Below, piece after piece: positions 18,634 through 22,997 of a stretch of DNA of 25,897 nucleotides (position 1 is the stretch's first letter; the number at the start of each line of letters is the position of its first letter). The stretch is from an uncultured Candidatus Saccharimonas sp. (GTDB taxonomy: Bacteria > Patescibacteriota > Saccharimonadia > Saccharimonadales > OMJO01): assembly GCA_964362185.1 (NCBI GenBank), contig CAYIDS010000001.1, forward strand, positions 1 through 25,897, given 5' to 3'. Made by a program: the position numbers and the translations under genes. Under the pieces are notes generated by a model that was not told where the DNA came from, ran no database searches, and was given only the letters and a program-made list of their open reading frames with translations.

Positions 18634-18695
18634 TGGCTGGGGGTGCAGGATTCGAACCTGCGAATGCCCGCCAGAGGCGGATGCCTTACCACTTG
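18634..18695 (-). pseudogene. tRNA-Gln-like 3' remnant
   Basis: Minus strand reads CAAGTGGTAAGGCA-TCCGC-ctctg-GCGGG-CATTC-GCAGG-TTCGAAT-CCTGC-ACCCCCA-G-CCA. It shares the D-loop and CATTC with the intact tRNA-Gln, has a 5-nt anticodon loop, and lacks the 5' end. Confidence 0.8.
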
Positions 18696-18706
18696 CATAA
18701 TTTCTC

Positions 18707-18889
18707 TTGGCTCATTTCTACAACGAAGCTCGAACCTATTTTGTTGAAAAAGCGTGATGACGAGCTCAGCCCCGCCGCCTGCTTGCGATTGTCGCAAGCC
18801 ACCCCGACAAGAAACCGCCTTTTAGTTTTTAGATATTCCCGCCAATTCCTTATTTTTCAAAGGAAAAGGTCGGTTTTCCTGTCGGTGCG
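18707..18889 (+). repeat. Left att arm (P'), inverted copy at 20694-20878
   Basis: 183 vs 185 bp, 5 substitutions and 2 indels by manual alignment, with the 85 bp next to the core identical. Contains the dyad GCTTGCGA-ttg-TCGCAAGC. Confidence 0.95.
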
Positions 18890-18938
18890 TTTTGTTAGAT
18901 ATAGCAAATATGTGACACGAAAGGTACAATCATCTCAA

Positions 18939-19080
18939 GTGGTTTGCCACTTTTGACCTAAACCATGTAATTGGCATGGTCATAAACCCAGTGAAGAATA
19001 CTGAGCTCGTCGTTCAGGTATCTTCACTGGTCGCAGTCCGAAAGGATTGTGGGGGACGAGAGTCTCCGCTTGGCGGCGAG
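18939..19080 (+). other. Multi-hairpin structured leader, candidate ncRNA or cis element
   Basis: ACCATG/CATGGT; CCAGTGAAGA.../...TCTTCACTGG (18988-19030); CGCAGTCC-GAAA-GGATTGTG (19032-19051); GGGGAC-GAGA-GTCTCC (19052-19067). Confidence 0.5.
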
Positions 19081-19114
19081 CTTTTTGTTCCCGTCCTAAA
19101 CTAAAGGAGAAAAC

Positions 19115-19690
19115 ATGTCCGACACAAAAGAAGTCAAAGCATCACAACATGAAAGCTACGGCGCATTTACAATAATCTCAATACTTTTACCCATAGTTGG
19201 AGTAATTTTAGGTATTGTTTTTCTTACCAAGGACAAGAAACTTGATAAAAAATTAGGTGAACACTGCATCGCTATAGGCGTTCTGTTCTCAATTATTTTC
19301 AGCGGTGTTTACTATTATTGGCTTGGGATTCAGACGACAACGATTCTTACAAACCCATATACCACACCACTGACAACGTCCAATTATCTTGACGACTATC
19401 AGCAACAGCAAAGTGTCGCAAAGGATGCCGTTAAAGTAACAAATACTTCCGTTAAAGACCAGGGTTATGGAATATACCAAGTAGTTGGCGAAGCAACCAA
19501 CGGCAACAGTACAGCTAAAACATTTACCTTGAAGGCTACATTTTATGACACCGCTGGCAAAATCCTTGGAACAGCAACTGGAGCACTGGATAATGTGTCT
19601 GCCGGTGAAACCAAAACATTTACTCTAGTATCTACGGATAAAATAGCTGGTTATGCAAACTATAAGGTTCAAATAGATTCCATATTTTGA
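19115..19690 (+). CDS. Membrane-anchored FxLYD-domain protein
   Basis: Two N-terminal TM segments; C-terminal VVGEATN...KATFYDTAGKILGT...GETKTF. AAGGAG SD. Confidence 0.85.
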   Translation: MSDTKEVKASQHESYGAFTIISILLPIVGVILGIVFLTKDKKLDKKLGEHCIAIGVLFSIIFSGVYYYWLGIQTTTILTNPYTTPLTTSNYLDDYQQQQSVAKDAVKVTNTSVKDQGYGIYQVVGEATNGNSTAKTFTLKATFYDTAGKILGTATGALDNVSAGETKTFTLVSTDKIAGYANYKVQIDSIF

Positions 19691-19790
19691 TTTTTTTTGC
19701 GGGTCTAATACTAAAAATATCGAGCAGAACCTGAGAGTTATTTAAGCATAAGCATTAGTCCAAGTAGACTGAATGTTGTACAATTTAAGT

Positions 19791-20300
19791 ATGAGTAACG
19801 TAGCCAATAGTAAGTATGAGAATGCAATTTTATACCTCTGTAAGCAACAGGGCGGGGTGCTTCGTGGCAAAAAGAAACTTGCCAAACTACTTTATTATCT
19901 TGATTTCGATAGGTACGAATACAAAGAGTCCACTAAATCGATAACTGGCGATACTTACACAGCATTGCCAATGGGGCCAGTACCTGACCACTTTATGCAA
20001 ATAGTCCAGCAGCTTGAAAAAACAGGCAAACTGCAGAAGGAAACACAGGAAGACTCGCCAGGATATAATCCTACAGAAGTATATATCTGCAAATCTGAAC
20101 CCGACATGTCGGTATTTGACGAGGACGAAAAAGCCATACTGAATCGTGTATTTACAGTCTATGGCCATCTTAACGGTAAACAGCTAGAAGATTTGACTCA
20201 CGCTGAAGCTCCGTATGTCGGCACCGAGCTGAGTAAAGAAATTGCTTACGACCTGGCTTTTTACCGAGGAACTGACTTCAGTGAACTTTCTACAGCATGA
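19791..20300 (+). CDS. Panacea (DUF4065/SocA-like) antitoxin
   Basis: KLAKLLYYLD, ITGDTY.ALPMGPVP, YGHLNGKQLEDLTH.EAP. Confidence 0.85.
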   Translation: MSNVANSKYENAILYLCKQQGGVLRGKKKLAKLLYYLDFDRYEYKESTKSITGDTYTALPMGPVPDHFMQIVQQLEKTGKLQKETQEDSPGYNPTEVYICKSEPDMSVFDEDEKAILNRVFTVYGHLNGKQLEDLTHAEAPYVGTELSKEIAYDLAFYRGTDFSELSTA

Positions 20301-20643
20301 CGAGTTTGTTAACGAGCTAAAGAAACTTAGCAAATACCCAAGCCTACAGGGTGGCTTAGACTCTGTGAAACGACTTCTCGAGAAACAATTTGATCCGAAT
20401 AACCCTGAGGTAGTTATACCTCCTGGGAAAATACACAGAGTGCACCAAAATACTGTCTGGTCGCTTTGGAAAATAGAAGTAGTTTTACCGAAATCTGGGC
20501 TACGACCAAGCCAATGGCCTCGTATGTGGTTCGCTGTGAGTGGCGATAAGATTGCGTTCTTATGTATCGCTGCTCATATGCAGAATTACGATAACAATAC
20601 TATCGATGCCTTAGCCACCAGCCGAGCATCAGATTATTTTTAG
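20281..20643 (+). CDS. Putative RelE/ParE-fold toxin
   Basis: EFVNELKKLSKYPSL...WKIEV...SGLRP...RMWFAV..DKIAFLCI. Overlaps the antitoxin stop. GTG 20281 is preferred, with GAGGA upstream. The fold call is by resemblance only. Confidence 0.55.
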   Translation: MNFLQHDEFVNELKKLSKYPSLQGGLDSVKRLLEKQFDPNNPEVVIPPGKIHRVHQNTVWSLWKIEVVLPKSGLRPSQWPRMWFAVSGDKIAFLCIAAHMQNYDNNTIDALATSRASDYF

Positions 20644-20693
20644 TTGCCTCCATTTCAAGCCAAAGCCTCGACCGCCTCTGCCCGCTAGGGCAG

Positions 20694-21003
20694 CGCACCG
20701 ACAGGAAAACCGACCTTTTCCTTAGAAAAAATAAGGAATTGGCGGGAATATCTAAAAAATAAAAGGACGGTTTCCTGGCGGGGTGGCTTGCGGCAATCGC
20801 AAGCAGGCGGCGGGGCTGAGCTCGTCATCACGCTTTTTCAACAAAATAGGTTCGAGCTTCGTTGTAGAAATGAGCCAATTTGAAACTTTTTGGGTTTTCA
20901 GAAGAATTTTGAAGGGCGGCACGGAGTGCCGTCCAATGTTTTTCAAGGGGGGATTTCTGAGCTTCAGGGTAGCGAAGCTGTGCTTTTTTGTTGGATAAAA
21001 TGA
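20694..21003 (-). repeat. Internal inverted attP-like junction (P-core-P')
   Basis: 20873-21003 is the exact reverse complement of 22506-22636 (131/131 by manual check). 20694-20878 matches 18707-18889. The two arms share the AGCCAA core at 20873-20878. Confidence 0.95.
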
Positions 21004-21119
21004 CCGCCATACGTGGTTTTGGTATAATACAGAAGCACCCACATCATGATTGTTCTTTTTTATGGCCGTCTTTGGACCGCATTGAGCAATCATTGTGGGT
21101 GCACCAAGGGCGGTCATTT
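20998..21119 (+). promoter_or_regulatory. Putative recombinase promoter and long leader hairpin
   Basis: TGgTATAAT (-10 at 21023-21028) and ATGACC 17 nt upstream; IR AAATGACCGCC/GGCGGTCATTT (20998-21008/21109-21119); inner stem GCACCCACA..ATGATTG/CAATCAT-TGTGGGTGC. Confidence 0.5.
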
Positions 21120-21136
21120 AAGTTAAGGAGGGTGAT

Positions 21137-22750
21137 GTGGCTGAAAAATATTTTCTTTACGCAAGGAAATCAACTGACGTTGAGGATAAGCAAGTTTTGT
21201 CCATAGAGGCACAATTAGCAGAACTACGTAACTATGCAAAACAAGAAAACTTACAGATTATTGAGGAATTAGTAGAAAAGCAATCAGCTAAAATACCAGG
21301 TCGCCGAATTTTCGGCGAAATGCTTAAACGCATTGAAGCTGGCGAAGCCAGTGGTATTTTGGCGTGGCACCCCGATAGACTTGCCAGAAACTCCATTGAC
21401 GGTGGACAGATAATCTACTTACTTGATATGGACAAAATACAAGCCCTAAAGTTCCCTAGTTTTTGGTTTGAAAGTACATCACAGGGCAAATTTATGCTTA
21501 GTATTGCTTTTGGACAATCCAAGTATTATGTAGACAACTTAGCTGAAAACACTAAACGAGGTTTACGCCAAAAAGTAAGACGAGGCGAATACCCTAGCCA
21601 TGCACCTATTGGCTACATAAACGATACTAGAAACAAAACAATTGTCGTGGACAAACGGCGTTCACTGATTGTCCGACAGGCATTTGAGCTGTACGCCAAA
21701 AACAATAGCCGATTAGAAGACATAGCCAACTTTTTAGCTAAGAACGGCATAAAGACATCTAGTGGTAAAACATACAAGAAAGACCGCATATCTTTCATGC
21801 TTGCTAACCCCTTTTATTACGGCCATTTCCGCTACGTTGGCGAACAGTATGAGGGTAAACACACACCAATCATCACGAAGAAACTATTTGACCAAGTACA
21901 GGCAGTGCTAACGCAGCGTGGCAAGCCACGCAAGCACCCGTGCAACCAGCCAAAGGCTTTTTGTGGTTTATTAGCCTGTGGTAGCTGTGAAATGGGTGTA
22001 ACTGCTGAAAAACAGAAAGGCCATGTGTATTATCGCTGTACGAGGAAAAGCAAAGCCATGAAATGTATTGAGCCTTATGTTCGTGAGGAAGAATTAGACA
22101 ACCAACTGTCTGACTTGCTTATAAGCTATTCAATGCCTAATGATTGGGCGCAGGACTTGCAAGCCAGATTAGCCAAAGACGAGCAAAAGAATCAAACTGC
22201 CTCTGGTGTGTTTGTGGCTAATGCCCAAACAAAGATTCAGAGTTTGCAAAGCAAACTCCAACGACTTCTTGACGGCTATTTAGACCAAGATATTGACCGA
22301 GATACCTATGTAGAAAAGAAAGCTGAGCTGATGAGTGAAAAGAAGTCATTGGAGGAACAATCTTCCAAGCTAACGCTTGCCAATACAAGTTGGCTCGAAC
22401 CATTCAAAGAATGGATTACAGAGGCTTCTAGCCTTCGTAATGTCGCCAAGTCTGATGACTTAACCGAAAAGAAAGCCAAACTTCGTAAAATCTTTGGCTC
22501 GAACCTCATTTTATCCAACAAAAAAGCACAGCTTCGCTACCCTGAAGCTCAGAAATCCCCCCTTGAAAAACATTGGACGGCACTCCGTGCCGCCCTTCAA
22601 AATTCTTCTGAAAACCCAAAAAGTTTCAAATTGGCTGGGAGTGAGGGATTCGAACCCCCGAATGCCAGGACCAGAACCTGGTGCCTTACCACTTGGCCAA
22701 CTCCCAATAATGCGTATCTAACAGGGGAGATTGTAGCAAACATTGGGTAA
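21137..22750 (+). CDS. Large serine recombinase (resolvase + recombinase + Zn ribbon + coiled coil)
   Basis: YARKST catalytic Ser, DRLARN, NLAENTKRGL, P.GY, CGSC...YYRC...C. GGAGG SD before the GTG. The last 37 codons are read from the antisense tRNA and its upstream region. Confidence 0.95.
   Translation: MAEKYFLYARKSTDVEDKQVLSIEAQLAELRNYAKQENLQIIEELVEKQSAKIPGRRIFGEMLKRIEAGEASGILAWHPDRLARNSIDGGQIIYLLDMDKIQALKFPSFWFESTSQGKFMLSIAFGQSKYYVDNLAENTKRGLRQKVRRGEYPSHAPIGYINDTRNKTIVVDKRRSLIVRQAFELYAKNNSRLEDIANFLAKNGIKTSSGKTYKKDRISFMLANPFYYGHFRYVGEQYEGKHTPIITKKLFDQVQAVLTQRGKPRKHPCNQPKAFCGLLACGSCEMGVTAEKQKGHVYYRCTRKSKAMKCIEPYVREEELDNQLSDLLISYSMPNDWAQDLQARLAKDEQKNQTASGVFVANAQTKIQSLQSKLQRLLDGYLDQDIDRDTYVEKKAELMSEKKSLEEQSSKLTLANTSWLEPFKEWITEASSLRNVAKSDDLTEKKAKLRKIFGSNLILSNKKAQLRYPEAQKSPLEKHWTALRAALQNSSENPKSFKLAGSEGFEPPNARTRTWCLTTWPTPNNAYLTGEIVANIG
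22632..22706 (-). tRNA. tRNA-Gln(CTG)
   Basis: TGGGAGT/ACTCCCA acceptor, GCC-AAGTGGTAA-GGC D-arm, CCAGG-ttCTGgt-CCTGG anticodon arm, GGTTCGAATCC T-loop, G-CCA end (75 nt). Confidence 0.97.
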
Positions 22751-22789
22751 AAACGCTAGTGTGATACAATGCTCTCAGGTTAACAATTT

Positions 22790-22997
22790 AAAAAATATAA
22801 AGAGTGCAGTGATCCTTCTTCGTTTATAACTACGGAAGGAGAGCAAGAACTAGCTCTATGCCGGCAACCCATTGTTCTGAATCCTGAATATGGAAGCCCG
22901 ATGACTGAATTAAAACTTCAGAATTCAGAATTCTGATTTCAAACTTCAGACTTTACGGTGCTCCATCTAGACCGCCGTTGGCGGAAAGATGTTTTGC
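22790..22997 (+). promoter_or_regulatory. SAM-I-clan riboswitch (SAM-I or SAM-I/IV) with large insertions
   Basis: Core motifs in order: ATAT-AAAGAG, GGCAACC, GGTGC, P4 hairpin, GAAAGATG; P1 AAAATAT/ATGTTTT; located upstream of metK. Confidence 0.75.

Follow-up and report, generated by a model that had tools for sequence, protein, structure and literature searches.

The window analysed here is an entire 25.9-kb contig from a metagenome-assembled genome (MAG) of the candidate phyla radiation (CPR) type, which comprises 743 kb in 162 contigs. Between positions 18707 and 22636 the window holds a 3,930-bp element that is integrated at the CCA end of a tRNA-Gln gene and that carries the gene of a large serine recombinase (LSR; 21137-22750, plus strand), recognized from its open reading frame (ORF) and its domain matches. 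In this integrated form the LSR has 537 residues, of which residues 1-500 are native and residues 501-537 are tRNA-derived. The tRNA gene, tRNA-Gln(CTG), is intact, encodes its own CCA, is the sole tRNA called by ARAGORN in the window, and constitutes the B' half of the target; because it lies at 22632-22706 on the minus strand, LSR residues 501-537 are a translation of the antisense strand of the tRNA and its flank.

The LSR has Resolvase, Recombinase, and Zn_ribbon_recom domains. The catalytic domain (PF00239, residues 6-151, E = 3.5e-21) is followed by a first DNA-binding domain, DBD1 (PF07508, residues 177-261), and by a zinc ribbon, DBD2 (PF13408, residues 275-326). The protein carries the motif YARKSTD, and the nucleophilic serine, S12, is invariant in alignments of 30 and of 45 sequences, as are Cys281, Cys284, and Cys310 of the zinc ribbon; Cys276 and Cys301 show no variation among the 30 sequences and next to none among the 45. 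AlphaFold2 (AF2) predicts a coiled-coil within the zinc-ribbon domain, formed by antiparallel helices 335-382 and 388-417, with predicted local distance difference test (pLDDT) values of 80-90. Two more distant LSR-like genes or fragments (C71:1901-3130 and C13:1507-1950; 28% identity) occur in the same MAG.

To describe the attachment sites, we designate the LSR 3' end as P, the core as O, the sequence that follows the native crossover as P', and the tRNA and its downstream flank as B' and B. The element then reads B-O-P'(a), cargo, inverted P'(b)-O-P, LSR body, and P-O-B'. Alignment of the three junctions reveals a common 6-bp core, TTGGCT, which is found in attL (junction B-O-P'; 18707-18712), in attR (22631-22636), and, as AGCCAA on the plus strand, in a third site at 20873-20878. 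The attR core is the reverse complement of the end of the tRNA (A, the discriminator G, and CCA) plus one base. The P arm is the 3' coding end of the LSR (22506-22630, plus strand), and a spare P arm at 20879-21003 on the minus strand is an exact copy of LSR codons ~458-498. Including the core, the two copies make up a first inverted repeat (20873-21003 versus 22506-22636) of 131 nt with 100% identity. A second inverted repeat (18707-18889 versus 20694-20878) is ~96% identical, with five substitutions and two indels, and contains the two P' arms: P'(a) at 18713-18889 on the plus strand, which also matches the family P' consensus described below and whose first 45 nt encode an orphan native tail, HFYNEARTYFVEKA, with its stop codon, and P'(b) at 20694-20872 on the minus strand, in which 20828-20872 encode the native tail and stop. 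The LSR gene body is thus flanked by perfect 131-bp inverted repeats, and the cargo by 183-bp repeats of ~96% identity.

The consequence of this arrangement is that the attachment site of the element lies inside the reading frame of its own recombinase. The frame runs through KSFKLA and the core, which encodes Leu499-Ala500, and then continues for 37 codons through the antisense of the tRNA and the flank. The attP core sits 14 codons ahead of the native LSR stop, and recombination between attP and attB therefore severs HFYNEARTYFVEKA, the native tail, from the gene, which becomes fused to the antisense tRNA. The original prediction, which was made from the window sequence, had placed the core at Leu499-Ala500 and had proposed that integration replaces the last 14 residues with a tRNA-antisense tail of 37 residues to give 537 in total; its coordinates and residue numbers are correct, and the replacement is borne out by the ORF, by the ARAGORN call, and by translation.

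The native end of the gene is preserved in the third junction. The minus strand of 20825-21010 translates to a sequence ending in KSFKLAHFYNEARTYFVEKA and two stop codons, which is the C terminus of a 514-residue form of the LSR, and the site as a whole is a complete second attP, inverted, 134 bp upstream of the LSR start codon and with the native tail frame intact. The original prediction had read the junction at 20828-21003 as the product that excision would give. The exact 514-residue C terminus that it described, FKLA joined to HFYNEARTYFVEKA, is indeed encoded there, but the junction is a standard spare inverted attP and not a trace of excision. A spare inverted attP is present in most of ~150 related loci, and the internal junction is therefore constitutive.

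The layout was independently verified in other data. Logan contigs from two groundwater samples span the LSR-core-tRNA junction (22381-22827) with zero differences, and a separate Logan contig covers the internal junction (20794-21020), with just 17 nt in unique sequence past the repeat. An assembler could in principle have fused the integrated form with the circular one, giving a chimera in which the inverted junction is false, and both the complete identity of the P arms over 131 nt, a length near that of reads or k-mers, and the breakage of the MAG into 162 contigs are in keeping with such an error. However, the P' arms have diverged from one another and continue into different unique sequence, which is not expected from an assembly chimera, the contig from an independent run passes through the internal junction into its unique flank, and the same layout is found again in dozens of independent assemblies produced by different software, closed genomes included. 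The layout is therefore neither a matter of chance nor an assembly artefact, an explanation that we consider scarcely credible. A contig from a second groundwater sample (run X1) has P'(b)-type variants in its attL arm (18792 T>C, 18807 A>C, 18810 A>G, an additional T after 18817, and 18825 G>T) before it enters the left end of the cargo. The two P' arms have therefore undergone exchange, which indicates gene conversion or double inversion between them in the population.

The element in the window belongs to a very large family of small LSR elements with cargo genes in CPR/Patescibacteria. Thousands of homologues were retrieved in a protein search, and the best 120 are 42-100% identical to the query. 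Among 119 database homologues (the query and its 514-residue form being left out), at least 85 have C-terminal peptides of the kind that translated tRNA T-arms give, such as G.EGFEPP, GIEPT, and GLEPP, and 9 end in a native-like tail, e.g. RFYDEARTHFERNC or PLYAEIRTYFQQNV. In a set of 80 loci from the GTDB that includes Saccharibacteria, Parcubacteria, and Magasanik-, Doudna-, Nomura-, and Peregrinibacteria, the antisense tRNA begins exactly at the end of family similarity in 60, such that the LSR reads into the tRNA; the targets represent 12 amino-acid types. Approximately two-thirds of the GTDB loci (63 loci) have an inverted copy of at least 100 nt of the LSR 3' end, which lies some 60-330 bp upstream of the gene with, in most cases, 98-100% identity, and the repeat stops 4-5 nt into the tRNA, at the CCA and the discriminator base. 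The core is within the LSR ORF in more than 100 relatives and varies together with the target tRNA's discriminator base, being TTGGCT for tRNA-Gln, TTGGAG for tRNA-Gly, and TTGGTG for most others, and the fused tails vary in sequence and in length (~5-60 residues) with the tRNA that was hit. Twenty-six elements could be fully delimited by attL, spare attP, and attR; they measure 2.9-10.3 kb, and the 3,930-bp element of the window is typical of them. By a strict threshold, family elements occur in ~14% of 400 sampled genomes.

Tails and target sites of other kinds were also encountered. Four close homologues (P0005, P0010, P0022, and P0034) share a non-tRNA tail resembling G.RVWEYNF. Locus L101 (1289-5503) has the usual two repeat pairs, but its site is a degenerate tRNA-Gln-like sequence (TGGCTGGGGAAAGAGTTCACGAA); an Rfam scan of this non-tRNA target gave no match, and the site may be a pseudo-attB.

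In terms of accessory functions, all-against-all BLASTP of 125 cargo ORFs from the 26 delimited elements revealed no conserved accessory gene and no conserved gene for a recombination directionality factor (RDF), and no RDF candidate was found with Pfam, PHROGs, or NCBIfam either. The cargo of the 26 elements has no common family, in line with the statement of the original prediction that no RDF candidate is evident. An RDF that is encoded by the host or is very divergent is possible. Examples of cargo in the family are a zinc alcohol dehydrogenase, an alanine racemase, a short-chain dehydrogenase/reductase together with a 2-hydroxyacid dehydrogenase, a BtrH-like protein, and a 1,328-residue GNAT protein; several elements carry one gene only, this being the alcohol dehydrogenase, the alanine racemase, or the GNAT protein. 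The elements thus resemble self-mobile gene cassettes. In loci L046, L051, L055, L067, L021, and L042 the cargo often consists of one or two ordinary metabolic genes and not of phage or conjugation genes.

The native tail is conserved across the family. Fifty-six spare copies keep an open tail with the consensus [LFI]Y[ND]x[AVI]RT[YFH]Fxx[NK]x, in which the stop codon follows the conserved arginine by 7-9 codons to give a tail of 13-15 residues. The alignment suggested along with the original prediction, that of homologous C termini, thus identifies the ARTYF-like tail as the conserved one, both in these 56 spare copies and in the 9 of 119 homologues noted above. The arginine is encoded by CGA in 35 copies, AGA in 16, CGC in 3, and CGG in 1, with glutamine in the remaining one; the threonine by ACC in 37, ACT in 10, ACA in 7, and ACG in 1, with one asparagine; and the phenylalanine by TTT in 48 and TTC in 7, with one histidine. 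At these three positions, variants are synonymous in 45 cases and non-synonymous in 3, compared with ~30% synonymous for random change, although the 56 loci are interrelated and the codon counts are not independent. The pattern points to constraint on the native tail at the amino-acid level.

The position of a sequence motif relates the P' arm to the tRNA end. The motif TCGAACC, the antisense of the T-loop, occupies positions +16 to +22 from TGG in the tRNA half-site and +20 to +26 in P', i.e. 4 bp further out, and is probably read by DBD2. In structures of the SPbeta integrase, the DBD2 motif is likewise displaced 4 bp outward in attP-type half-sites (PMC11722253). Given this correspondence, P' looks like a mimic of the tRNA end that is read in the attP register.

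The arms also contain candidate transcription signals. A terminator scan found two terminator-like hairpins on the antisense strand of the P arm (22595-22575 and 22549-22530), which at attR would be predicted to end tRNA-Gln transcripts; in the spare P arm the corresponding pair lies on the plus strand (20914-20934 and 20960-20979). Across the family, antisense terminators were found in 45 of 63 P arms and sense-strand terminators in 9 of 63, with ~4 (4.1) expected in shuffled sequences. Directly after the hairpins of the spare P arm, at the inner edge of the repeat and 108 nt before the LSR start, is the best promoter-like site of the region (21000-21028, plus strand; ATGACC-17-TATAAT with a TG), identified by consensus match only. 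The ORF at 20828-21010 (60 residues, ATG start), which would encode the tail without a recombinase body, was considered as an independent trans-acting or RDF-like peptide and rejected as a family feature: an in-frame ATG is present in 11 of 51 spare tail copies and a Shine-Dalgarno-like motif in 2 of 51.

Structure prediction suggests where the native tail resides. In the AF2 model of the 514-residue form, a helix spanning residues 495-513 runs across the crossover point with pLDDT values of ~66-70, whereas residues 492-537 of the 537-residue form have pLDDT values below 50. When residues 491-514 were docked as a separate chain onto residues 270-490, the score was 0.71, compared with 0.03 for the best control; solved complexes attained a score of this size in 51 of 78 cases and mismatched pairs in 2 of 108, although the docked chain of 24 residues is outside this calibration (<30 residues) and a covalently attached helix was modelled as a free peptide, both of which count against the interpretation developed below. 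The tail is predicted to contact helix 477-490 and the two strands that form the coiled-coil base (residues 337-348 and 415-426). The patch 415-426 contains two tryptophans, W419 and W426, that do not vary in the family alignments, and 11 of 16 contacting tail residues are beyond the crossover and hence are lost on integration. The models are consistent with a native tail that forms the outer two-thirds of a terminal helix packing on the base of the coiled-coil. In the SPbeta integrase, RDF helices act on and restrain the region of the coiled-coil base (PMC11722253), and in phiC31 the extreme C terminus belongs to the RDF interface; the predicted position of the tail would therefore coincide with the region through which characterized LSRs control directionality.

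The orientation of the gene was surveyed by means of a census in which the query was restricted to LSR residues 1-450, so that the inverted repeat could not bias the result. In 400 genomes across the phylum, 69 loci were found, and 49 of the 52 that could be classified are tRNA-fused; one is flipped (a pseudogene), one is possibly flipped, and one has a native tail. The other loci run into contig ends or could not be assigned to a state, and those without an assignment mostly have tRNA-like tails. A circle with two near-identical inverted attP sites would be expected to place the LSR in its native form, facing away from the tRNA, half the time. Two of the first 80 loci, L052 and L071, were verified by translation to be flipped, with a tRNA-fused P arm located upstream of the gene in inverted orientation. 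Both isomers therefore exist, and the tRNA-fused one dominates roughly 25 to 1; inversion is inferred from these two flipped relatives and was not observed within a population.

Stacked arrays are present at L017 (1367-10339, tRNA-Gly) and L073 (3536-8255, tRNA-Ile), and the older members of these two arrays are the two native-tail LSRs that we find on long chromosomal contigs. In L017, the newer, tRNA-adjacent element contributes the P' arm to which the older LSR is now fused, and the tail of this older LSR is unlike that of its own spare copy, which implies that stacking supplies the older enzyme with a foreign but native-type tail. These arrays further indicate that attR, which retains the tRNA half-site, is reusable as a target (attB), and LSR-catalysed inversion between the spare attP and attR is therefore plausible.

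Taking the sequence comparisons and the models together, we lean narrowly towards the view that the tRNA-fused enzyme, deprived of the helix predicted to anchor to the coiled-coil, is attenuated and that the native form is regained by excision or by a flip. Integration exchanges the native tail for a tRNA-antisense tail and would leave an attenuated or "off" enzyme, which would lock the element in place and spare the other tRNA genes of the cell from the internal attP. Excision would restore the native enzyme, with attL supplying the tail, and so would a flip of the gene body between the P arms onto the spare attP, whether by homologous recombination or by the LSR itself treating attR, with its retained tRNA half-site, as attB. 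Because the enzyme would be disarmed whenever the gene body flips from native to tRNA-fused, the latter state would be a sink, and the antisense strand of the P arm would at the same time provide the tRNA with a new terminator. A broader proposal is that the C-terminal helix is a built-in, covalent control module standing in for an RDF, its removal switching the recombinase off or altering the pairs of sites that can synapse, and that the spare attP is a re-arming latch, which returns the helix to the enzyme when the gene body flips; thousands of elements able to target any tRNA gene would then carry an RDF-free directionality circuit that relaxes by itself to the disarmed state, as the native enzyme could itself carry out the attP x attR flip. 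We put this forward tentatively, as a possibility to which we incline less than to its opposite.

Several observations weigh against an attenuating tail swap, beginning with the modest confidence of the AF2 models (mean pLDDT of 70 and 63). No flipped, excised, or empty-site form of the element was seen in the Logan contigs, where depth is 2-5. A search of JGI metagenomes for the circular attP and the empty attB (the tRNA through AGCCAA and then GAGAAATTA), the forms sought on the strength of the original prediction, gave zero exact matches. A 1,617-nt contig, L016, does carry a 514-residue ORF and ends 4 nt after its stop; it could derive from a circle, from the flipped state, or from wrong resolution of the repeat, with an assembler taking a false path through its 131 nt, and the short native-tail contigs L102, L103, and L105 are compatible with a circle or an isomer alike. 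The excess of tRNA-fused loci could be due to transcriptional context, not to the tail. Moreover, canonical LSRs are already inert on attL and attR when no RDF is present (PMC11722253), and a lock is therefore not strictly needed. This last point also favours the notion that the tail swap is a neutral by-product, in which attP overlaps the end of the gene by chance and the enzyme is unaffected. In such a case the tail and the spare site would be kept only because P' is a bound DNA half-site and the attP copies homogenize each other, and the orientation excess would reflect transcription, with the LSR either convergent or co-directional with the tRNA. The tail is indeed constrained at the DNA level as well, as its alanine is always GCT and the third bases of TAC and AAC/GAC are kept; its ART codons overlap the TCGAACC motif common to the tRNA T-arm; and the antisense terminators of the P arms show that the arms have roles beyond coding. 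However, variation at the arginine, threonine, and phenylalanine codons follows the genetic code, with 45 synonymous changes to 3, the change of CGA to AGA breaks TCGAACC yet retains arginine, the position of the stop codon is conserved, and the helix is predicted to dock on the invariant tryptophans at the base of the coiled-coil. On balance we regard a neutral by-product as unlikely.

The swap could instead reverse directionality, such that the tRNA-fused form is competent for excision (attL x attR with no RDF) and the native form is the integrase. The lack of a conserved RDF gene can be rationalized in this way, as can the predicted location of the tail at the position of the SPbeta RDF helices, where its removal could alter the trajectory of the coiled-coil. 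With a fused form that excises readily, however, insertions would be unstable, yet fused genes persist in 49 of 52 census loci and 60 of 80 GTDB loci, and because the fused tails vary, only the loss of the helix could account for any gain of function. An excision-competent fused form therefore fits poorly and an "off" or locked form fits better, and we give a reversal of directionality little credence.

In architecture, the family is like the large serine integrases of phages and of integrative and conjugative elements (ICEs), represented by Listeria A118/LI, SPbeta SprA, phiC31, and Bxb1, with the same domain order and a coiled-coil inserted in the zinc ribbon. For the C-terminal domains, the closest solved relative by sequence is the A118 integrase (4KIS; E = 1.5e-5, aligned over 197-414). 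The family also has a short core, as these integrases do, and shares with SPbeta the occurrence of the same motif 4 bp further out in the attP-type half-site (PMC11722253). It differs from the phage and ICE enzymes in having attP inside the integrase ORF and, in most loci, a second inverted attP; in targeting the CCA end of almost any tRNA gene; in lacking a conserved RDF gene; in having an extra C-terminal segment of ~48 residues, the last helix of which is removed by integration; and in the small size of its elements (3-10 kb) with their non-phage cargo. The best NCBIfam matches are to CcrB (112 bits versus a cut-off of 900), XisF (95 versus 375), and CcrA (89 versus 700), from the RDF-independent LSRs that include SCCmec CcrA/CcrB/CcrC, XisF, and TnpX/TndX; the family is thus distantly related to CcrB and XisF but falls far below the cut-offs and does not belong to these equivalog families. 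To our knowledge, the Ccr enzymes and TnpX have no dedicated RDF, and the family resembles them in seeming to have no dedicated partner of this kind, but it is set apart from Ccr, XisF, and TnpX by its targets, its att-in-ORF design, and its inverted spare site.

Integration that alters an integrase is known from tyrosine recombinases. In Mx8, integration rewrites the 3' end of the integrase gene (IntP/IntX), and in SSV1 it splits the gene, so that the prophage enzyme differs from the free form. The present family is like these systems in having the crossover inside the integrase ORF and a changed protein (514 versus 537 residues), but Mx8 and SSV1 integrases have an unrelated fold and only serine-recombinase domains are found here, which makes the family an analogue and not a member. 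We know of no spare inverted attP kept by Mx8/SSV1-type integrases, and the piece exchanged here differs in being a helix predicted to dock at the base of a coiled-coil. The arrangement is also reminiscent of the yeast 2-micron plasmid (FLP/FRT), where a pair of long inverted repeats containing the recombinase site divides two unique segments, and of Hin/Gin, in that, like hin, the recombinase gene is part of a segment that could potentially invert. The present enzyme, however, is an LSR and not a tyrosine recombinase or a small invertase, and unlike the 2-micron plasmid the element is chromosomally integrated, with no replication gene or origin found in its 3.9 kb by Pfam, PHROGs, and NCBIfam scans. 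We found no published description of the family, or of any LSR whose own ORF contains attP, in full-text literature on serine recombinases and integrases in CPR, Patescibacteria, and Saccharibacteria, on tRNA- and CCA-targeting serine integrases, and on Mx8-type att-in-gene integrases.

Serine integrases are prized in genome engineering for their simple, one-way reactions, the reversal of which needs a separate directionality factor that is hard to find. The present family seems to encode control in cis, through a terminal helix that is removed and restored by recombination and through a spare site that can be flipped; if true, this would be a new way of controlling directionality and a compact design for a DNA latch. 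The family is also a source of integrases for a universal target, the CCA end of tRNA genes. Within CPR/Patescibacteria it is a dominant vehicle of gene flow that has apparently gone undescribed, and it transports toxin-antitoxin genes, defence genes, or single metabolic genes. A great many of its LSR genes (L021-L100 and L106-L174) begin 100-500 nt from a contig end; perfect inverted repeats of 100-220 nt evidently break short-read CPR assemblies and may thereby explain why many contigs end near tRNA genes.

The cargo of the element in the window comprises three ORFs on the plus strand. The first (19115-19690) encodes a 191-residue FxLYD-domain protein (NCBIfam NF038353, E = 1.5e-7) to which no role is assigned; its only Pfam match, to DUF1425, is sub-threshold (E = 0.0056, 17 bits versus a cut-off of 28.3), and it has no PHROG match. 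The second (19773-20300) encodes a 175-residue SocA/Panacea antitoxin-like protein (PF13274, E = 3.5e-19; phrog_1281). Overlapping the end of the Panacea gene is a third ORF of 133 residues (20242-20643), taken from the ORF list, which has no family match in Pfam, PHROGs, or NCBIfam and which may be the cognate toxin of a PanA-type pair.

Outside the element, in the B flank and 11 nt from attL, is a tRNA-Gln-like 3' fragment of 62 nt that extends from the D-arm to the CCA (18634-18695, minus strand). It is a direct repeat with 84-86% identity to tRNA-Gln (22632-22695), is without the 5' acceptor strand, is two bases short in the anticodon stem, and is not called by ARAGORN. We considered the fragment as a true att repeat and rejected this assignment, as the family repeats end at the CCA and the discriminator base. 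No such tRNA fragment lies beside attL in 25 other elements, and the fragment is probably a scar that an earlier event left at the tRNA locus and not a feature of the family.

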